Virus record (IMG/VR): IMGVR_UViG_3300026521_000148
Location: 1-64,000 of that record
Direction: 5' to 3' (one strand)
From: a virus
Length of the DNA stretch: 64,000 bases
In this document: positions 53,488 to 63,265 of the stretch, one piece after another
How the letters are laid out: each line of letters begins with the position of its first letter
Numbering within the stretch: position 1 is the stretch's first letter
Program-made: the position numbers and the translations under genes
The notes under the pieces: model-generated
Told to the model about the DNA's origin: nothing
The model's database searches: none
The model's input: the letters and a program-made list of their open reading frames with translations, nothing else

Positions 53488-56400
53488 ATGAGTCAAATTT
53501 TAATAAAGAAACGTAGCGGCGTAATGGAACCACTTGACGATGAGAAATATCACCAGCATGTAGAGGAAGCAGTTAAAGGTATAAAGGGTGTATCAGCATC
53601 GCAAATAGAGATGGACGCAGCTATGAATATAGTCGACGGTATGCGCTCTACAGAGATACAACACGCATTGATCATGTCGGCTAGTAATAAGATACCAACT
53701 GACCCAAGATACAACAAACCGGCAGCTAGGCTACTTAACCAAGATTTAAGAAAAAGAGTTTATGGTGATTATAAACCAGATGATTTTGTTAAACATATCG
53801 TTGGTAATATCGAAAATGGTGTATATGATAAATCCTATTTAGAAGAGAACTACACTGATGATGAGTTTAAAGAGTTATTGTCTATCATAGATTATGATAA
53901 AGATGATAAGTTCACATATTCTGGTTTAAAGAAAAATACTGATGGGTATTTGATAAAGCGTTATGGAGAGATAAAAGAAACTCCTCAAGAATCATACATC
54001 ATGATAGCTATATTCGCATTTGCTAAGTATAAAGAAAAATATGATGTAGAAACAAGAGCATATTGGGTTAAAGAGTTATATACAGCATTAAGTGATTTTG
54101 AGATAAGTCTACCTACACCTATCATGGGTAAACTAAGAACAACTTTTAGAAACTTTATAAGTTGTGTACTTATTCCATTAGGAGATACGAAAAGAAGTAT
54201 AGCTAACGCATTCTCTACTATATTAACTGTTGTTGCATCTGGTGCCGGTATTGGGTTAGGCGGGTACGATATCCGTGGCCAAGGTGCTGATATAGATGAT
54301 GGTAGAATGCAACATGTTGGTACATTCCCTATTATTAAAGCCAGTGAAAAAACTACTAAAGCTTTTGTACAACCAGATAGAGACGGTAGCACTACTGTAT
54401 TCTATGCTTTTTACAATGTAGAGATCTTGAAGATGATGACATGGGGTAATGCTAAAGGTACTGATGATACAAGAGCTAGAGATCTAGACCATGCCATTAA
54501 CTTTAATAAGTTATTCTTCGAGAGATTAAGAGATGGTAAAGATATAACATTATTTTTTACAAATGATGTACCTATGCTTAAAACATGTCTTGGTGATTTT
54601 AAAACTTTTAAAAGATTTTACGAACAATATGAAAATACTGTTCCTGTAGAAAGACAAACTAAGGTACCTGCAGAGGTTATATTCGATAATTTTATAGATG
54701 AACGCGTGTTACAGTCTAGAGAGTATGCCGCTTTCATGGATGCGGTGCAAATGCATGGTGGTTATGATGTACCTATTAATCAGTTAAACCTTTGCGTTGT
54801 TGGTAGTACAGAAATATTAACAAAAGAGTATGGTAACATAGAAATAGGTAAATTAGTTAATGATATGGGAGTTACTAGTACGGAATGCTGGAATGGTGAG
54901 GAGTGGTCACAAACAGAATTATTTAAAACAAGTGACGGTCAAAAAGTTTGGACTATCATACTCAGTAACGGTGTTAAGCTGGAGGTAACGCCATACCATA
55001 AATGGTATGTTAAGAAAGATCCTAATAAGTACGATAGTCCGATAATCGAAAAAAGAACACACGAGTTACTAATAGGTGATAAACTAGAAAAATTCCTATT
55101 ACCAGATGATGTCAAATTTGGCGATAAACTGATATTAAATCCCTATACATCTGGTTTCTTCACATCTGATGGAACCGATTTAGGGCAAAATAAACGCATC
55201 CGTCTGTATAACGAAAAAACAAATTTATTAGATAAGTTATTTAAGAAGATTAGGTATAAACGTTTTTTTAAAGCTAACGAAAATAATAACTCAGTTATTG
55301 AGGTATATTATTCGTCTAACTATTTAGAGGATAAATTTTTTGTACCAACATCAGAATATAGAAAATCTGATGTATTAAAATGGTTAGCTGGTGTGTTGGA
55401 TGGCGATGGAACAGTACTTAACAATAACGGGGCTATGTCTATACAACTAGCGTCTGTTAATGAAGAGTACCTTACTAAGATACGCTTACTTTTAGTAAAT
55501 TTCGGTATCGATGCGAAAATCTCGGTTTTTAATAACGAGCGCGTTGTTCCTCTACCAACGAATAAGGGCGATGGTAGTGCGAAATTATATAAATGTAAAA
55601 AGGCATGGCGCATTACTATACCTGGTAATGATGTTAATACGTTAATAAAACACGGCATAAAACTACATAGATTAGATATAAGACACCATGACTATAATAG
55701 AGATGCTAGGAGTTTCGTGACAGTTAAAGCTATAATCGACGATGGTGGCATTAGTGATACCTATTGCGGTACAGAACCTAAAAGAAATAAATTATTGTTC
55801 AATGGCGTTTTAACAGGTAACTGTAACGAGATCGCACAGCCGACATTTCCACTTGAGTCTTTGTATAATATTAAAAGAAATATTAGATTTTATACAGAAG
55901 AAGATATGAAACACTATTATGAATTAAGACATCAGTTATTCTCGTTACAATCTTACGAAAATAAGTTTTCTTACACTATAAGAAAACAGATGACTAGACA
56001 CTTTGAGTTTGTTAATAGTGATCTCGGAGCTACTGTAGATGAAACTTTACCTTATGATTATTTCGATCTATTAGGTCTACCTGTTATGGATGAAACAGGT
56101 GTTTGTATTATTGCTGGTATAAATATAGGACATGTTAAAGTGGAAAGGCTCCCTATAGTTTCTGAATTGTTAGTTAGGGTTCTTGATGAGCTTATTGACT
56201 ATAACAAATATGAATCTTCATACATGGAGAAAGCTGCTAAGATGCGTAGGGGCATAGGTATAGGTTTTAGTGATGTATTTCACTTATTAGCTATTAATGA
56301 AGTTAAGTATAATACTAAAGATGGTATGGAGCTGATTAATGAAAGATGTGAGTTAGCTACCTACCATATGATAAAAACATCTATACAACTAGCAGAAGAT

Positions 56401-57042
56401 TTTGGTCCTTGTTTATTAAGTTACGATAATAAGTATAGTAAAGGTATATTCCCTATAGATACGTATGAAAAGAATGTTGATGAGTTGGTGTCTAGATCAC
56501 CATTAGGGTTAGATTGGGATGGTCTTAAAGTTAGAGCTAGAAAATCCGGTACTAGACATAGCACACTATTCGCTAATGCGCCATATGGTAACTCTGCGAT
56601 ACCTTCAGGTAGTACATCTGGTATAGAGCCACCTAGAAGTCTTATCTATAAGAAACATGGTTTATATAATGTTGTTCCTGATTACGAAACACACAAAGAT
56701 TTCTACACTACAGCATGGAGTGATGAATTTAACAATGCTGATTACTTTAAGTTTACAGCTGTTGTTCAGAAGTGGTGGGATCAAGCATTAAGTCTTAATG
56801 AGTATAGAAACTTATTAAAATACGTAGATGGTAAGATACCTAAATCAGAGTTAATGAGAGATATACTTATAGCTATGCATTATGGACATAAATCTATGTA
56901 CTACCTTAATGTTAAGTCTAAAGAAAAAGATAAAGACGGAGATGGTGATGATAGTCTGTATAAAGCAGATATAAAAGAAGAGATTATTATAGAAGATGAA
57001 GATGATAGCATAAGCTGTGAAAGTGGTAGCTGTTCTATTTAA
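53488..57042 (+). CDS. nrdA: Ribonucleotide reductase class Ia alpha subunit containing an intein (841 aa after splicing)
   Basis: ATP cone, ETPQ, PTP.M...RT....SC, NL[intein]CNE, TSGIEP, DQA.S.N, KS.YY, C-terminal CESGSC. Confidence 0.93.
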   Translation: MSQILIKKRSGVMEPLDDEKYHQHVEEAVKGIKGVSASQIEMDAAMNIVDGMRSTEIQHALIMSASNKIPTDPRYNKPAARLLNQDLRKRVYGDYKPDDFVKHIVGNIENGVYDKSYLEENYTDDEFKELLSIIDYDKDDKFTYSGLKKNTDGYLIKRYGEIKETPQESYIMIAIFAFAKYKEKYDVETRAYWVKELYTALSDFEISLPTPIMGKLRTTFRNFISCVLIPLGDTKRSIANAFSTILTVVASGAGIGLGGYDIRGQGADIDDGRMQHVGTFPIIKASEKTTKAFVQPDRDGSTTVFYAFYNVEILKMMTWGNAKGTDDTRARDLDHAINFNKLFFERLRDGKDITLFFTNDVPMLKTCLGDFKTFKRFYEQYENTVPVERQTKVPAEVIFDNFIDERVLQSREYAAFMDAVQMHGGYDVPINQLNLCVVGSTEILTKEYGNIEIGKLVNDMGVTSTECWNGEEWSQTELFKTSDGQKVWTIILSNGVKLEVTPYHKWYVKKDPNKYDSPIIEKRTHELLIGDKLEKFLLPDDVKFGDKLILNPYTSGFFTSDGTDLGQNKRIRLYNEKTNLLDKLFKKIRYKRFFKANENNNSVIEVYYSSNYLEDKFFVPTSEYRKSDVLKWLAGVLDGDGTVLNNNGAMSIQLASVNEEYLTKIRLLLVNFGIDAKISVFNNERVVPLPTNKGDGSAKLYKCKKAWRITIPGNDVNTLIKHGIKLHRLDIRHHDYNRDARSFVTVKAIIDDGGISDTYCGTEPKRNKLLFNGVLTGNCNEIAQPTFPLESLYNIKRNIRFYTEEDMKHYYELRHQLFSLQSYENKFSYTIRKQMTRHFEFVNSDLGATVDETLPYDYFDLLGLPVMDETGVCIIAGINIGHVKVERLPIVSELLVRVLDELIDYNKYESSYMEKAAKMRRGIGIGFSDVFHLLAINEVKYNTKDGMELINERCELATYHMIKTSIQLAEDFGPCLLSYDNKYSKGIFPIDTYEKNVDELVSRSPLGLDWDGLKVRARKSGTRHSTLFANAPYGNSAIPSGSTSGIEPPRSLIYKKHGLYNVVPDYETHKDFYTTAWSDEFNNADYFKFTAVVQKWWDQALSLNEYRNLLKYVDGKIPKSELMRDILIAMHYGHKSMYYLNVKSKEKDKDGDGDDSLYKADIKEEIIIEDEDDSISCESGSCSI
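54793..55821 (+). mobile_element. 343-aa intein with LAGLIDADG homing endonuclease
   Basis: Starts CVVGSTEILT, block B VTPYHKW, GFFTSDG and WLAGVLDGDG, ends TYC......FNGVLTGN followed by extein Cys. Confidence 0.92.
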
Positions 57043-57051
57043 AAAAACAAT

Positions 57052-57083
57052 ACATAACTATGGACCATGGTCCATAGTTATGT
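57052..57083. terminator. Bidirectional terminator (perfect palindrome)
   Basis: ACATAACTATGGACCATGGTCCATAGTTATGT between convergent operons. Confidence 0.8.
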
Positions 57084-58294
57084 TAAAATTTATATATAAA
57101 ACCAATACTAAACGCAACCATATCTTCATAAGTAGCACTATATTCGTCTATAGGTGATGTTTTAGGAACACCAAATATTTGTGTTGTTTTATTTGTTGTA
57201 TTCTTATAATAACCAAACATAGCTTTAACCATGAAATCTTTTTTAATAGTTATTGTATCATACATTTTAAATGTGTACCCTAATGCACCACTATTGTTTA
57301 TAGACAATGGGACACCAACAGTCATGTTGTCATAACCGGGAGATACATATTTACCTTCGAACCCTAACCTCATACTGCGATGAAGTATAACATCATCAAA
57401 TATCTTAGAATAACCTAATAATAGGGAATACCCGTGTGTTTCATATTTACCAAAATAACTATTACTTGGAGGTGTTTCTATAAACTTGTTTAAAAGAGTA
57501 CTATCCCCTTTTGTTTTAGACATAGAGCCTATGATATAAAATGTATCACCTATGGTTTCTAATCTATCATATACGAACTCTATGCCAACTAACTTTAGAT
57601 CTTTAGTACCTGCGTCATAGAGTATCTCTTTATATGTATAATAATTAAAATCCATACTTAATTTATCAGTTATATCACTCTTAATCAAAACAGTATATCC
57701 ATAACTACCGTTAAATGCTTTCATAGTTTTTCTGTTATCGTATGTGTATTGATTAGTATCCATAACGTAAGCTGTATCTACGAACTCTCCTTTTGATATC
57801 CTACCACCAGTTATGATTGTATCTCTATCTCTCCATGTTAACAATAGTCCTTCTAACTCAAAATCTACTAAACCATATATACCTATACCGTTAGTACTAT
57901 CATAAAGATCTGTGTTATTAAAACTACCTGTTTTAAAGTTTAATATACCTGTTGTTAAATATAGATTATTTATTAAATGTTTAGTATAATAGAAGTTCTC
58001 TACATTTATAACATCATAGTCACCTAACTGATGTTTATATTTATTATTGTAACCTGTACCGGTAACCCCTATGTAACTTATAGTACTAGCGATTTTATCT
58101 TTATCTATAAGTAATAGAGTGTTATTTCTAAGTACAGTTCTAACTAACGTACCATTATCTCTATCGCCATCATCAATCGGGCTATTATAATAACCAACTG
58201 CTTTATCCATTAACAGATATGTATTACTCTTTATGTCGTCTAGTGCATGTAGACCACATATAACTACTAATAAACCTATTATAATGTTTTTCAT
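57083..58294 (-). CDS. Putative outer-membrane beta-barrel protein
   Basis: Signal peptide; alternating Tyr/Gly-rich beta strands; C-terminal beta-signal-like FSIGFIYKF ending in Phe. Confidence 0.7.
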   Translation of the reverse strand: MKNIIIGLLVVICGLHALDDIKSNTYLLMDKAVGYYNSPIDDGDRDNGTLVRTVLRNNTLLLIDKDKIASTISYIGVTGTGYNNKYKHQLGDYDVINVENFYYTKHLINNLYLTTGILNFKTGSFNNTDLYDSTNGIGIYGLVDFELEGLLLTWRDRDTIITGGRISKGEFVDTAYVMDTNQYTYDNRKTMKAFNGSYGYTVLIKSDITDKLSMDFNYYTYKEILYDAGTKDLKLVGIEFVYDRLETIGDTFYIIGSMSKTKGDSTLLNKFIETPPSNSYFGKYETHGYSLLLGYSKIFDDVILHRSMRLGFEGKYVSPGYDNMTVGVPLSINNSGALGYTFKMYDTITIKKDFMVKAMFGYYKNTTNKTTQIFGVPKTSPIDEYSATYEDMVAFSIGFIYKF

Positions 58295-58608
58295 TTCTTA
58301 TCCTTAAAGATATAGAACGAATTCGATCCCATGTCGGTATTTTCATCATGTGTTAAACAAAAACATGCTTCTTTCATAAGTTGTTCCTTTTTAACACCAC
58401 AAACATAATAAGATAACTTATTATTATTACAAACTCGTTTCCAACTTACAACTGTTTTTATGTCTGGATCTATACATAATTCATTAAGTACGTTAGTACA
58501 CTTTTTCTTACTATACTTACAGCCTACATTTATAGTCGGCAGTATAGCAGGTTCAGCATGAAGTATGACAGATATAAACAAAACTATAGATGATATTTTC
58601 TTTATCAT
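58291..58608 (-). CDS. Exported Cys-rich small protein
   Basis: Signal peptide ending VILHA; 7 Cys; ATGA overlaps on both sides. Confidence 0.7.
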   Translation of the reverse strand: MIKKISSIVLFISVILHAEPAILPTINVGCKYSKKKCTNVLNELCIDPDIKTVVSWKRVCNNNKLSYYVCGVKKEQLMKEACFCLTHDENTDMGSNSFYIFKDKK

Positions 58609-59927
58609 ACTCGTTCCTTTTTCTTTTCTACTACTTTAAATACTAATCTAAAGATGGTGCCTTGTTTAGTTGTTTTTAACACTTCAACACTACCTCCTAT
58701 AGATTCTAACTCTTTTTTATTTATATACATACCTATACCCCTGAGTTTACTACTCTTACCATCTCTAGCTATTTCACCGTTAGCTTTTTTAGTAGTGACG
58801 CCTTGCTCAAATATTATATTAGGATCTTTTACTATATTACCATGTTTATCTTGTATGCCTATACCGTTATCTACTAATAGCATCTCTACTACATTAGTAT
58901 CTATCATTTTTAACATTATAGATAGCTTACTAGCTTTTGCTTCTTTACTATTAACTATATGGTTTTTTAATATTCTACCTGTCTTACTATTCCCTAACTC
59001 CCTACAAGGCCTAAACCTTTTAGCTATATCCCTGCCCTTAACAATAGTGACATCTATTTTCCTAACTGATAATGAATTAACAAAATTTGTTATAGTAGTT
59101 ATTATCTCGTATATACTAGCTTCTGTTTCTTGGTACTTTAACTTCTTAGTATTTGATATAGTATGTATAACTTCTTCTATTGTCTCTACTGCCATTATGC
59201 TGTTAGAGTACATATCGTCTATTTTAACTAGATCATAAGTTTTTTTATCAACAAGCTCACATTCTGCTAAACAACTAGGTTTCTCTGTTAAGTGTTTATA
59301 CATAGACGTTATTAAACTTTTTAATAGTGCTAGTGGTAAATTTATTTCATGACCTATAGATTCACCAAGATCTCTCTGTAACGCTATCTCTAACTCTTCT
59401 TCTTTAGCTTTATCCCTTATATCTAAAATCTTTATACGTTCGTATTTATATATAAAAAATGGTATAGTGAAAAAAAGAAATAGAAAAAAATAGTTAATAA
59501 TCATTAACGTATTAACAGAATCAAAATACGCTGAATCATCTACTATTATTCTATTACCTTTAAACTCTATAACTGTATCATAATCTTCATTAAACACATT
59601 ACAAAATAAAGGTTCAAACTTACTTATATCAACGGTATCTCTTCGTAAGATACCGTTGATACTTTTATAAGTCACGCCATTACTACTCTCTAATTTATCG
59701 CATGTTACTGTGTTGCATATGAGATTAAGATCCACTCCATTAAGTCTATCAACGGTTTCTAATCGTGTATAATATTTTTCTAAAGATGTCTTATATGTAC
59801 TATACATAGTTATAACATTAAATAACGTTATAGTAACTAAGACTATGAAACCTAACTTTATATATTCTTTACCTGTTTCTTTAGTTAAAACTCTATTAAG
59901 AATATCTTTATTAATATTAAACATCAT
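58605..59927 (-). CDS. Membrane sensor histidine kinase
   Basis: Two TM helices around a ~95-aa periplasmic loop; H box SIGHEINLPL, N box KNHIVNSKEA, G1 DNGIGI, F box IFEQGVTTK, G2 RGIGMYI. Confidence 0.9.
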   Translation of the reverse strand: MMFNINKDILNRVLTKETGKEYIKLGFIVLVTITLFNVITMYSTYKTSLEKYYTRLETVDRLNGVDLNLICNTVTCDKLESSNGVTYKSINGILRRDTVDISKFEPLFCNVFNEDYDTVIEFKGNRIIVDDSAYFDSVNTLMIINYFFLFLFFTIPFFIYKYERIKILDIRDKAKEEELEIALQRDLGESIGHEINLPLALLKSLITSMYKHLTEKPSCLAECELVDKKTYDLVKIDDMYSNSIMAVETIEEVIHTISNTKKLKYQETEASIYEIITTITNFVNSLSVRKIDVTIVKGRDIAKRFRPCRELGNSKTGRILKNHIVNSKEAKASKLSIMLKMIDTNVVEMLLVDNGIGIQDKHGNIVKDPNIIFEQGVTTKKANGEIARDGKSSKLRGIGMYINKKELESIGGSVEVLKTTKQGTIFRLVFKVVEKKKERV

Positions 59928-60553
59928 TAATCCTTATATAATAACTCATAGATGCGCTTATATCTTTCTGAGTTTTTATTAAGATAATAGTTACTAAAGT
60001 TTAAACCTGTAGCATCCTCAAATTTCTTAAAGAAAAAACCAACTGTGGGGTTCTTCTTATTAAGAGTGTGGGCTGTACAAAATATAAATTTAAGATCAGG
60101 ATTTCTTTTATATAACTCTAAAAATACGTCTATACCATCATACTCGACATAATCACCATTAGTTAATTTAACACCATATCCTAATGTTATATCTAATATA
60201 GCGTAGTCAACATGTTCATAATTTTCGTGTATGAACTTATGCGCTATAAAACCAGCTTTAGGTCCTAAACATGTTATTATATTAAAATCTTCATTAACGT
60301 CTTTATCATACACTCTTTTTATGTCTTTAAAATCTTCCCCATACAGATACCACATATTTTGTATATCATCTAGTATTAATATGGTCTTACCATTCTCTAC
60401 TCTAGATATACCAGGGTTACCGTATTTATCATAGTCTATACTTTCAACACCATCTTGTATATCTGTTAGTAATTTATCCAATTCTTTATTATTATATTCT
60501 TTATTATTATCATTTTTTTCTTTTTTAAAAAATCTTTTAAATATGTTTAACAT
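59927..60553 (-). CDS. Stand-alone response regulator receiver-domain protein
   Basis: TILILDD, DYAILDI (phospho-Asp), DGIDV, FIFCTAH, YYLNK; no recognisable output domain. Confidence 0.8.
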   Translation of the reverse strand: MLNIFKRFFKKEKNDNNKEYNNKELDKLLTDIQDGVESIDYDKYGNPGISRVENGKTILILDDIQNMWYLYGEDFKDIKRVYDKDVNEDFNIITCLGPKAGFIAHKFIHENYEHVDYAILDITLGYGVKLTNGDYVEYDGIDVFLELYKRNPDLKFIFCTAHTLNKKNPTVGFFFKKFEDATGLNFSNYYLNKNSERYKRIYELLYKD

Positions 60554-60563
60554 ATCGATTCTC

Positions 60564-61028
60564 CTATATAAGGTTAGTTAAGGCTTTTAGACCTAATGTT
60601 AATAAACTATGCATAGCTGAAACAGCCTTCTCAACAGCTACTGGTTCTAGATGGTATAGTATAGTAAAAAATAAAGTTGTTGTAAAGACAACACTCATAC
60701 CTTTTAAAGCATTCTTATATGTAAAAAGTTTAGCCTCTTTTTCCTCTTTAAGTTTTTCTACCTCTACTAACATTTCTTTGTATTTATTAAGTAGTGCCAT
60801 ATCTAGATCTATGATATGTATAAGTGACCTAACATGATGATGACGTATAGCTTGTAGCTCTGCTGTATAATTGTTAGTTAATAAAATAAGTATCTCTTTA
60901 AGCTCTCTATCTATAGAGTCCATAGCTATAAGTTTATTAACACTAGCATTCTCTTCCGTCCTAGATTCCATTGTTGTATTAAATATGTTTTCTTTTAATT
61001 CAAATAGTTTTTTATTTATATCTTCCAT
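60564..61028 (-). CDS. Hypothetical membrane protein heading the two-component operon
   Basis: Helical N-terminal region with C-terminal TM segment; GGGAG RBS. Confidence 0.7.
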   Translation of the reverse strand: MEDINKKLFELKENIFNTTMESRTEENASVNKLIAMDSIDRELKEILILLTNNYTAELQAIRHHHVRSLIHIIDLDMALLNKYKEMLVEVEKLKEEKEAKLFTYKNALKGMSVVFTTTLFFTILYHLEPVAVEKAVSAMHSLLTLGLKALTNLI

Positions 61029-61102
61029 GGTAACTCCCTATGCGTAAAATCAAATAAATTAAAAGAAAAAACTACTACTAGCCTAACTAGGCTAGTAGTA
61101 TG

Positions 61103-61567
61103 TTAGTTTGCATCGCTGCGTTCATTTTTTTCAGTATTTACTGCTTCTTCATCACCAGGAATACTAGCTGCTTCTGCGGCTGCCTTAGCTAAACCAGCAG
61201 GATTTATCTGTTCCATTTGTTTTTGGAACTCTTCACGTTTTTTACGTTCTTCTTCTGCTTGTTTACGAGACGCTTCAATCTCTTCAGCAGTAGGGAATGC
61301 TTGTTCAATCTTTTCAAACATTTGATCTTCAGTAAGACTATCTGCTAAACTGATAACATTGTTGTAAGCTACTTCTAAACCTTTTGGCGTTTTAGCTAAA
61401 AGAACAACACTTACTTCATGACTTGTAATTGTTTCATCTTTTTCATAATCACAAGTTAAAACATTTTCTTGTACCTGTACTTTAGCGATAAATACATTTT
61501 TATCTTCACCAGCTCTTTCTAAGAACGCTGTTACTTCTTCTAGTGCTTTTTGTTTTACATTTTCCAT
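61103..61567 (-). CDS. Hypothetical acidic/coiled-coil protein
   Basis: 154-aa ORF, RBS, terminator 61073-61100. Confidence 0.75.
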   Translation of the reverse strand: MENVKQKALEEVTAFLERAGEDKNVFIAKVQVQENVLTCDYEKDETITSHEVSVVLLAKTPKGLEVAYNNVISLADSLTEDQMFEKIEQAFPTAEEIEASRKQAEEERKKREEFQKQMEQINPAGLAKAAAEAASIPGDEEAVNTEKNERSDAN

Positions 61568-62154: not shown

Positions 62155-62436
62155 TCACTTCAATTCATTCGCTTGTTGTTCGGGCTGTTTCTTTTTCACA
62201 TAGTTTAATAAGAAATCAGTAACACCTGTATTTCTCAGTAATCTTTCACCGAACCAAAATACAATAATGACTATCATGATATCGCTTAACTTGTCTATAT
62301 AAATATCTGGTAAATCATCGTGTTTAAAAAATGTGTATACATAAAGTATCGTGAATACATATGTTAAAACAGGTCTTATAGACGACTTTAATTTTAATAC
62401 CCAATTAGGACTATAGTTATCTGTATTTAATTCCAT
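62155..62436 (-). CDS. Holin (3TM/GTA-type family)
   Basis: W...L...IRPVLTY...TM...FWFGER pattern. Confidence 0.7.
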   Translation of the reverse strand: MELNTDNYSPNWVLKLKSSIRPVLTYVFTILYVYTFFKHDDLPDIYIDKLSDIMIVIIVFWFGERLLRNTGVTDFLLNYVKKKQPEQQANELK

Positions 62437-62954
62437 GGTAATTTCCTTAGATTTATTAATGGTTTATATTCAGCATATTTAACATTAGGATCTTTATAAA
62501 TAGAAACTAAATTAAATAATAGGTTAGGTGATACACTAGAAGGCTCTAAGTACCACATAGGTTTATAGCCATCTATTTTTAATACGTTACTAGCTACTTC
62601 AGAACAGAACCACATATCACTTCTATCTTTAAACGGTAAAACAAAACCTATTATACCAGCGTAGTCATATTTTTGATCTACTATAGATTCTAGGAATTCA
62701 ACTATTACATCTTGATTATTTATAGGTACATGTACGTAATCGTATCTACTAGCATTTATATCATTTAGTATATGTTCATTTTTAACTACTTTACCCCTAC
62801 CCTCTTTTGCTTCGTAACTAACATATTCACCATTTACTTTTAAAATTATTGCTACATGGCTATAAGGACCATTTGTCCAAGCTGCTATAAGCTTACTTGT
62901 AAAAGCAGTATCATTTACATCGGTTCTTCTAAATCCCAATATCATAGTATCCAT
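62427..62954 (-). CDS. Permuted papain-like (NlpC/P60, YiiX/YebB-type) amidase
   Basis: GPYSHVAI (His), YD..G, WFCSE (Cys), SP..L. Confidence 0.75.
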   Translation of the reverse strand: MDTMILGFRRTDVNDTAFTSKLIAAWTNGPYSHVAIILKVNGEYVSYEAKEGRGKVVKNEHILNDINASRYDYVHVPINNQDVIVEFLESIVDQKYDYAGIIGFVLPFKDRSDMWFCSEVASNVLKIDGYKPMWYLEPSSVSPNLLFNLVSIYKDPNVKYAEYKPLINLRKLPWN

Positions 62955-62956
62955 AT

Positions 62957-63265
62957 CTAACCCCTAAATAATAAAAATAAAACAGTTAACGTTATCATAA
63001 CTGCATTTTTAGATGTATATATGATATCTAATATATCAGGAGTATGTTTACTTTTATTAAAATAGTCATATACCTCTTTACTAGTAGCTACTAATACTAC
63101 TATAACTGTAGCTAAAATAAATATAGTAGCCATAGACATAGTAATAAAGAAAGAAACTAATGTTAACACTATAAGGCTTATAGTATATAAAACATCACCG
63201 TAATACGCATGTAATAACTTATCATTAGGGATAAATTCATTAAGTCTTTTTAAGATCTTCTCCAT
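62957..63265 (-). CDS. Small membrane protein (DK.LH...KE..D...D..D type)
   Basis: NDKLLH, KEVYD, TPDILDIIYT and three hydrophobic segments. Confidence 0.6.
   Translation of the reverse strand: MEKILKRLNEFIPNDKLLHAYYGDVLYTISLIVLTLVSFFITMSMATIFILATVIVVLVATSKEVYDYFNKSKHTPDILDIIYTSKNAVMITLTVLFLLFRG

Follow-up and report, generated by a model that had tools for sequence, protein, structure and literature searches.

Introduction

Two-component systems are seen as cellular equipment, and those met in phages are usually classed as scattered, host-derived morons. Here we describe a five-gene block at positions 57083-61028 (minus strand) of a 64,000-nucleotide stretch of viral DNA, hereafter the window, namely positions 1 to 64,000 of the 80,350-bp IMG/VR virus record IMGVR_UViG_3300026521_000148. 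In order, the genes encode a membrane protein (g1), a stand-alone receiver (g2), a sensor histidine kinase (g3), a small Cys protein predicted to be exported (g4) and a predicted outer-membrane β-barrel (g5). Judged from its sequence, the block is very probably a phage-owned two-component signalling operon, inherited in a phiKZ-like jumbo-phage lineage and expressed in an infected diderm host.

The nearest working parallel is provided by class I (HisKA-type) kinases paired with a single-domain receiver, such as HK853-RR468, KinA-Spo0F and DivJ/PleC-DivK, with CheA-CheY as a parallel for the receiver. With these pairs the phage cassette shares adjacent genes, an H-box His, an ATP-binding domain with N, G1, F and G2 boxes, and a (βα)5 receiver that has a D-D-D-T-K pocket and is free of an output domain, so that its output would be by protein contact. 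Unlike them, it is virus-encoded, and the window receiver and the dimerisation and histidine phosphotransfer (DHp) domain of the kinase are too divergent for Pfam. Further differences are, in g2, a ~55-aa N-terminal extension and a β-hairpin insert; in g3, a DHp loop with Cys and, at the fourth position after the His (His+4), a hydrophobic residue; and a linkage to other envelope genes, of which one for a tail-anchored coiled-coil protein is always present and those for a secreted protein and a barrel usually are.

Two other systems invite comparison at the level of function. The Rcs envelope-stress system consists of RcsF, which is threaded through OmpA/C/F, together with IgaA and RcsC/D/B. 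By analogy only, the phage cassette would likewise have a small disulfide-containing, periplasm-facing protein and an outer-membrane barrel feeding an inner-membrane kinase; unlike Rcs, it shows no sequence or fold similarity to that system, its g4 has no lipobox, and it includes no IgaA, phosphorelay or DNA-binding regulator. In T4 lysis inhibition, RI and RIII act on holin T by direct protein binding. The likeness here is of a phage periplasmic sensor that tunes lysis to envelope events, and genes for a hydrolase and holin-like proteins are found close to the cassette in the window. There is no homology, however, T4 uses direct binding where the cassette would use phosphotransfer, and the link to lysis described below is positional and incomplete.

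Jumbo phages also carry divergent receivers named cREC, which never occur with histidine kinases and are tied to NAD/ADP-ribose enzymes (Iyer et al. 2021, PMC7824862). The g2 family resembles cREC (PMC7824862) in being a divergent receiver carried by jumbo phages, but it always adjoins a kinase. Phage-encoded outer-membrane barrel folds comparable to g5 are present in BFVD as OmpC-like and phosphate-selective porin entries; these are only 11-12% identical to g5, and no coupling to a kinase or receiver is reported for them. Our literature search found no publication describing the five-gene cassette, and one preprint names two-component genes among phage morons, without analysis.

The kinase and the receiver

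The kinase gene g3 (58605-59927, minus strand) encodes a 440-aa protein that Pfam, family alignment and hydropathy identify as a sensor histidine kinase with two transmembrane segments. Its HATPase_c domain (PF02518) scored 31 bits in Pfam, against a cut-off of 26.4. The hydrophobic segments, at residues ~21-45 and ~137-161 of the hydropathy profile, enclose a predicted periplasmic loop of ~90 aa (residues 46-136, ~59520-59792) that opens with a conserved CxxxxC. A DHp domain with His193 (codon 59349-59351) and a catalytic and ATP-binding (CA) domain are both present. In an alignment of nine family members (22-57% identity), S190, H193, E194, N326, S327, E329, A330, D353, G355, G357, F373, G376, R396, G397 and G399 were invariant in 9/9 sequences, and these residues constitute the H-box (an ES..HE..P motif), the N-box, G1, F and G2. 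The initial annotation had described a two-transmembrane kinase with all five boxes, and this description is borne out both by the invariance of the boxes over the nine sequences and by the HATPase_c match above its cut-off. The alignment demonstrates that g3 retains every residue expected to be required for ATP binding and His autophosphorylation.

A profile built from the kinase family matched CheA, SrrB, BceS and HK853, and aligned across the DHp and CA domains of HK853 and BceS. With the Pfam HisKA model the only match was the kinase homologue of one relative (L005; contigs of relatives are designated L002 to L009), at 23.1 bits and below the 26.9 cut-off. The His+4 residue of g3 is hydrophobic, not the Thr or Asn that HisKA kinases need at this position for phosphatase activity. 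Five g3 relatives, 49-58% identical, are present in Joint Genome Institute (JGI) metagenomes.

The adjacent gene g2 (59927-60553, minus strand) encodes a 208-aa stand-alone CheY-like receiver, recognised by its AlphaFold2 (AF2) fold, its pocket residues and a family profile. The protein has a poorly conserved N-terminal extension of ~55 aa and a β-hairpin insert following strand 3, and it has no output domain. Its AF2 model, with a predicted local distance difference test score (pLDDT) of 90, adopts the (βα)5 CheY fold; Foldseek matched it to CheY, Spo0F, DrrB and DesR, and all of the top matches were receivers (TM-scores of 0.6-0.7 on the target). Across 54 relatives the pocket is almost unchanged: D63, D121 and T/S160 are found in 54/54, D62 in 51/54 and K193 in 49/54. 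The phospho-acceptor is predicted to be Asp121, encoded at 60191-60193. These alignments demonstrate what is, by its residues, a full phospho-acceptor pocket without an output domain, in agreement with the earlier description of a receiver-only regulator retaining its D/D/T/K residues.

Sequence searches place g2 at some distance from named receivers. Response_reg (PF00072) was matched by 13/54 of the receiver relatives at E<=0.01. The 54-sequence profile matched CheY chains in the PDB (E 5e-5), and a four-sequence profile found no match among PDB sequences. The g2 family is a divergent receiver subfamily, recognised through fold and residues. An exhaustive profile search sized this family at 238 clusters at E<=1e-3, or 150 at E<=1e-10, with nearly all members among the matches listed being 190-310 aa long.

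Two minor features of g3 were recorded. The loop of the DHp hairpin (residues 216-226, ~59250-59282) reads SCLAEC, with two Cys in the window copy; in the kinases of L006-L008 the same loop carries a longer insert with at least four Cys (C..C...C..C), which in L008 gives a weak Pfam 'zf-like' match. A Cys-rich loop of this kind is a possible metal or redox site within the kinase dimerisation domain. Inside g3 there is also a 194-aa antisense open reading frame (ORF) at 58654-59238 (plus strand), which by BLASTP is seemingly conserved in L002-L004. This ORF is most likely a by-product of a conserved sense frame in AT-rich DNA and not a gene.

Organisation and borders of the operon

ORF calling recovered all five genes in a single direction on the minus strand, running from 61028 to 57083 in the order g1, g2, g3, g4, g5, at the coordinates first assigned to them. 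The last four are joined by overlaps, as had been reported: g2 and g3 share one base (TAATG), and the g3/g4 and g4/g5 junctions are ATGA overlaps. The 10-nt gap between g1 and g2 contains a GGAG site. The 5' border of the operon is set by a hairpin with a T-run at 61073-61100 (minus strand), which terminates the upstream gene; between it and g1 are an AT-rich spacer and a GGGAG. The 3' border is a second hairpin with a T-run, at 57052-57083 (minus strand), whose 14-bp palindrome is common to the operon and to nrdA, which lies downstream of g5 in the convergent orientation (53488-57042, plus strand). The phage-type terminator noted in the initial annotation has a counterpart at each operon end. 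Between 56900 and 63400 we observed 8 hairpin-plus-T-run sites, compared with 1.2 expected. Because of the stop/start overlaps and the terminators at both ends, the five-gene block looks, in its sequence, like a single transcription unit with translational coupling.

The GC content of the operon (27-30%) is the same as that of the remaining window and of its flanks, so the phage-like composition ascribed to it holds. Ahead of g1, all seven lineages in which the cassette was found (the window and L004-L009) have a strong hairpin and then an AT-rich spacer. In this upstream region (61029-61102, minus strand, in the window) a TTGAT..TTTA-like element lies ~20-35 nt 5' of the g1 start and is common to four lineages. 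A shared promoter class, ATTTAnTTGAT, was considered upstream of g1 and rejected; its single occurrence in the window matches the number expected by chance.

A cassette found only in phage records

The window belongs to an incomplete record (29% by the CheckV estimate). It has split multisubunit RNA polymerase genes (phrog_3148, 2986 and 2987), which are typical for phiKZ-like jumbo phages, and its RNA polymerase β subunit shares 36-38% identity with the β subunits of Vibrio phage pVa-21 and Pseudomonas jumbo phages. To judge from such genes, the carriers of the cassette form a large, uncultured, phiKZ-like lineage.

Contigs of relatives were retrieved with hand-made degenerate DNA patterns, one for the kinase N-box and one for the receiver. 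The N-box pattern recovered the contigs of three kinase relatives, in which gene order is the same as in the window. In L002 the barrel gene is followed by a convergent nrdA, 72-80% identical to that of the window, and in L004 g1 is preceded by a homologue (54% identity) of the window ORF at 61103-61567. Because both operon borders are reproduced in these independent metagenome contigs, a chimera with host DNA at the borders, a concern raised in the initial annotation, is excluded.

The receiver pattern recovered five IMG/VR contigs of 75-252 kb. The receiver is directly followed by a kinase of the same family in 5/5 and a g1-like gene lies ahead of it in 5/5; the order g1-g2-kinase holds in all seven lineages. 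Two of these cassettes (L007 and L008) are in records with direct terminal repeats (DTR), of 205 and 252 kb, the second of which is rated complete; each of these genomes carries the cassette once, with virion RNA polymerase genes beside it. In the window clade, as in L007 and L008, the kinase is followed by both g4 and g5; the same holds by position for L009, where g4 is further identified by profile. The cassettes of L005 and L006 consist of g1, g2 and the kinase alone, with ORFs of 815-829 aa behind them. Since the kinase is not followed by g4 and g5 in these two lineages, that pair is not essential to signalling. The constant core of the cassette is g1, receiver and kinase; the secreted protein and barrel often accompany it as an accessory pair.

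The variant cassette of L005 (6727-7731 of a 118.7-kb record) has a kinase of 334 aa with two closely spaced membrane helices and no periplasmic loop; its 829-aa ORF lies downstream, and a tail-collar fibre gene lies upstream. Co-variation of the periplasmic loop with g4 and g5 was considered and fails, as L006 keeps the loop without either gene.

Every phage record contained exactly one HATPase_c domain, no canonical receiver and no DNA-binding regulator, and PF00072 matches numbered zero in four records. The operon DNA, the kinase and two receivers had no match, as DNA or protein, in 50,697 cultured-phage records. The receiver DNA pattern gave 51 matches in ~185,000 species genomes, none of which belonged to the family; they were ordinary weak receivers or chance matches (best E 7e-7). 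At E<=1e-10, the receiver profile found zero matches in 1,203 sampled bacterial genomes (401 each of Campylobacterota, Pseudomonadota and Bacteroidota), and with the same settings it found 3/3 virus records. The comparison of phage with bacterial genomes suggested at the outset thus found the block with the same neighbours in phage contigs and in none of the bacteria sampled, and among the records searched the cassette is a phage-only, vertically inherited family.

A lead to the host comes from a receiver homologue, P0166 (MGE3593804.1, 54% identity), on a 165,374-base contig in a metagenome-assembled genome (MAG) labelled Arcobacter sp. This contig is probably a jumbo phage binned with its host, and an Arcobacter host is consistent with a GC content of 30%.

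The membrane protein and the accessory pair

The first gene, g1 (60564-61028, minus strand), encodes a 154-aa membrane protein. It has a helical, coiled-coil-like N-terminal part, predicted to be cytoplasmic, with a conserved LILL-x-SN-x-KAE stretch, and a single C-terminal hydrophobic helix followed by a short tail. The transmembrane segment is weak in the window copy, where it falls under the hydropathy threshold, and clear in relatives. Homologues lie directly 5' of the receiver in L004, L006 and L007 (by BLASTP), in L008 (by profile) and in L005 and L009 (by position and alignment). No Pfam or PHROG family was matched by g1. Its gene always comes first in the cassette, and the protein is a candidate for the receiver's partner or target.

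The 105-aa product of g4 (58291-58608, minus strand) was identified by its N-terminal hydrophobic segment and by cross-lineage alignment. Its signal peptide includes an 'LHA' signal-peptidase-like site and the protein has 7 Cys, in keeping with the exported Cys-rich protein first noted at this position. Across lineages only two Cys (C37 and C84) and a W-x-R motif are constant. Homologues are located between kinase and barrel in L002, L004, L007, L008 and L009. No family in Pfam or PHROG was matched, and a structure search of the Atlas was uninformative owing to a poor Atlas model. We considered a lipoprotein and ruled it out, there being no lipobox and no conserved Cys at the lipobox position. 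The protein is probably a periplasmic accessory of the kinase.

The last gene, g5 (57083-58294, minus strand), encodes 403 aa, beginning with a signal-like hydrophobic helix and ending in FIYKF, of which the terminal Y-K-F is invariant in six relatives. The AF2 model is all-β with ~18 strands (pLDDT 69.7; predicted TM-score, pTM, 0.72), and Foldseek matched it to AlgE, OprB, chitoporin, Campylobacter MOMP and general porins (E 3e-13 to 1e-9). As modelled, g5 has all the hallmarks of a porin: a closed antiparallel barrel, a signal peptide and a C-terminal aromatic signal. The barrel with a terminal Phe that had been proposed from the letters alone is in this way recovered by structure prediction. 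No Pfam or PHROG family was matched, which places g5 outside the named families Alginate_exp, OprB, Porin_1 and MOMP. Its sequence relatives number only six, all from the same phage lineage, and a search of 401 Campylobacterota genomes returned one marginal match.

Lysis genes near the cassette

Outside the operon, a candidate lysis cluster on the minus strand (62155-63265) comprises a 102-aa ORF with several transmembrane segments, a 175-aa hydrolase and a 93-aa transmembrane ORF. The hydrolase gene (62427-62954) is three genes upstream of g1 and encodes a C92/YiiX-like NlpC/P60 protein, which matches phrog_1128 (E 8e-28) and, in the Atlas, has a feature score of 0.95 and TM-scores of 0.71-0.80 to YiiX/Peptidase_C92 clusters. 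The initial annotation had placed the operon between nrdA and tail/lysis genes; nrdA (plus strand) lies on one side as described, and the second part holds to the extent that this hydrolase, flanked by small membrane ORFs, lies on the other.

Comparable genes recur in some relatives. Directly ahead of g1, L006 has a C92 homologue (25.5 bits on PF05708, just below the 27-bit cut-off) and a Peptidase_M15_3 endolysin. L009 has an M15 endolysin (phrog_894, E 4e-33) three genes upstream of g1 and, farther upstream, homologues of the window membrane ORF and its neighbour. L005 shows a weak endolysin match three genes downstream of the cassette. Hydrolase genes are 0-3 genes away from the cassette in the window, L006 and L009 (weakly in L005) and not in the 205- and 252-kb DTR genomes; the association with lysis genes is real in some lineages and is not general.

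The hydrolase clusters span 62155-63265 (minus strand) in the window, 6302-7357 in L006 and 11123-11635 in L009. At the corresponding place the M15_3 endolysin stands beside the C92 gene in L006 and instead of it in L009, which suggests that the hydrolase is exchanged within a fixed lysis cluster.

A proposed mechanism and its alternatives

Kinase and receiver are under long-term constraint, being intact over deep divergence, and are always accompanied by g1. In the mechanism we propose, the kinase would lie in the inner membrane with its N-terminus and catalytic part in the cytoplasm and its ~90-aa loop in the periplasm, and g4 and g5 would be exported through host Sec and BAM. In most lineages g4 would act on the periplasmic loop of the kinase, and g5, as a phage-supplied outer-membrane pore, would admit a cue or report the state of the outer membrane. 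The kinase would phosphorylate Asp121 of the receiver, and the phosphorylated receiver would deliver its output at the membrane through protein contact, its likeliest target being the cytoplasmic coiled-coil part of g1. The most speculative step is that this output would delay or trigger lysis, as a functional counterpart of T4 lysis inhibition that uses a kinase and a receiver.

The trans-envelope module envisaged in the initial annotation stands as far as its parts are concerned, in that a predicted pore, a periplasmic protein, a kinase and an output-less receiver are all present. The term fits only part of the family, since the barrel and secreted protein are dispensable in L005 and L006. 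Its suggestions of redox or density sensing and of an output to motility found no specific support apart from the conserved Cys and the CheY-like fold. Lysis timing, which it also named, is supported by gene position in three or four of six lineages and in neither of the DTR-bounded genomes; our best single guess for the function of the cassette, a tentative one, is that it controls when lysis occurs. That this jumbo-phage clade builds a whole envelope-spanning sense organ, from pore, periplasmic co-sensor and kinase to receiver and membrane effector, with phosphotransfer setting the time of lysis, is a somewhat more doubtful proposal; its cues might be, for instance, superinfection or a diffusible signal.

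Several observations weigh against the signalling mechanism and its link to lysis. The g2 protein lies under the Pfam gathering threshold for PF00072 (12.5 vs 30.2 bits, E 0.17), and a kinase with neither Thr nor Asn at His+4 may, on that residue, be regulated differently from textbook HisKA kinases. Confidence in the barrel model, which comes from a six-sequence alignment, is moderate (pLDDT 70), and neither g4 nor g5 follows the kinase in the examined parts of the L005 and L006 records. Among the DTR-bounded genomes, the M15 gene of the 205-kb genome is ~50 kb from the cassette, and neither C92 nor M15 is matched in the complete 252-kb genome, whose only SLT match falls in a 1,799-aa ORF ~135 kb away. 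The three clear lysis-adjacent cases share some synteny and may not be independent.

The same evidence bears on other accounts of the cassette. Its kinase and receiver might not form a closed circuit and might engage in cross-talk with host two-component pathways, the receiver serving as a phosphate sink or as a CheY mimic at the flagellar switch and the kinase phosphorylating or dephosphorylating host regulators, so that envelope stress, motility or metabolism is reprogrammed. The closest sequence and fold matches of the receiver are indeed CheY proteins, it has no output domain, and no target is identifiable in the phage; PIT4 is reported to be a phage protein that interferes with host two-component systems (PMC10714779). 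The two genes are, however, always adjacent, translationally coupled in the window and co-inherited over deep divergence, which is the pattern of a cognate pair. Moreover, both proteins are far from cellular sequences, and the only six kinase relatives found among 5.8 billion proteins all belong to this lineage; because of this distance, mimicry of a particular host partner is disfavoured, and we consider such a hijack of host signalling unlikely.

We give still less weight to an account in which the barrel and secreted protein remodel the cell surface, whether by replacing or masking receptors in superinfection exclusion or by opening a nutrient or ion pore, with the kinase pair merely tuning the effect. 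Lambdoid phages carry porin genes, porin-like barrels (OmpC-like and phosphate-porin-like entries) occur in the viral structure library BFVD, and g5, the last gene of the operon, has its best matches to the substrate-specific channels AlgE and OprB. A receiver without a DNA-binding domain, on the other hand, cannot regulate expression of the barrel, and because L005 and L006 keep g1, g2 and kinase without g4 and g5, the conserved function is that of the signalling core and not of the barrel. Mis-assembly or mis-binning of host DNA with a phage contig, or a decaying, functionless moron, is suggested by the relative in the Arcobacter sp.-labelled MAG and by the incomplete metagenomic contig (29%) from which the window comes. 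Against this stand the same borders in independent assemblies, the location within DTR-bounded phage genomes beside virion RNA polymerase genes, a composition equal to that of the flanks and invariant catalytic residues. Bacterial copies were zero in 1,203 genomes and none appeared among the 51 pattern matches in ~185,000 species genomes, and the 165-kb 'Arcobacter' contig is itself of jumbo-phage size. An artefact is accordingly very improbable and already largely refuted.

Returning to a phage-owned signalling operon, what appears from the sequences to be new is a two-component system that is virus-owned, phage-only in the records searched and envelope-linked. Kinase and receiver, complete as a pair, come with a phage-encoded membrane partner and in many cases also with a phage-encoded periplasmic protein and pore; they make up a vertically inherited phage family of hundreds of clusters. 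If it is active, lytic giant phages would watch the envelope of the infected cell with a sensor of their own instead of host signalling, and for a phage that keeps its DNA secluded, in the manner of nucleus-forming relatives, an output that dispenses with DNA binding would be fitting. Were the full sense organ to exist, the virus would own a decision circuit that derives from a two-component system and is unmatched in cells. His193 and Asp121 provide a concrete handle on how such phages might time late events, for example lysis.

An intein in the convergent nrdA gene

The nrdA gene that converges on the operon contains an intein of ~341 aa (54799-55821, plus strand) with a LAGLIDADG endonuclease. 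The intein begins with CVVGSTE and ends with a TGN that precedes a Cys. In Pfam it matches LAGLIDADG_3 at 39.8 bits, above the cut-off, and Intein_splicing weakly. The nrdA homologue of L002 is without an intein, exactly at the insertion point seen in the window.

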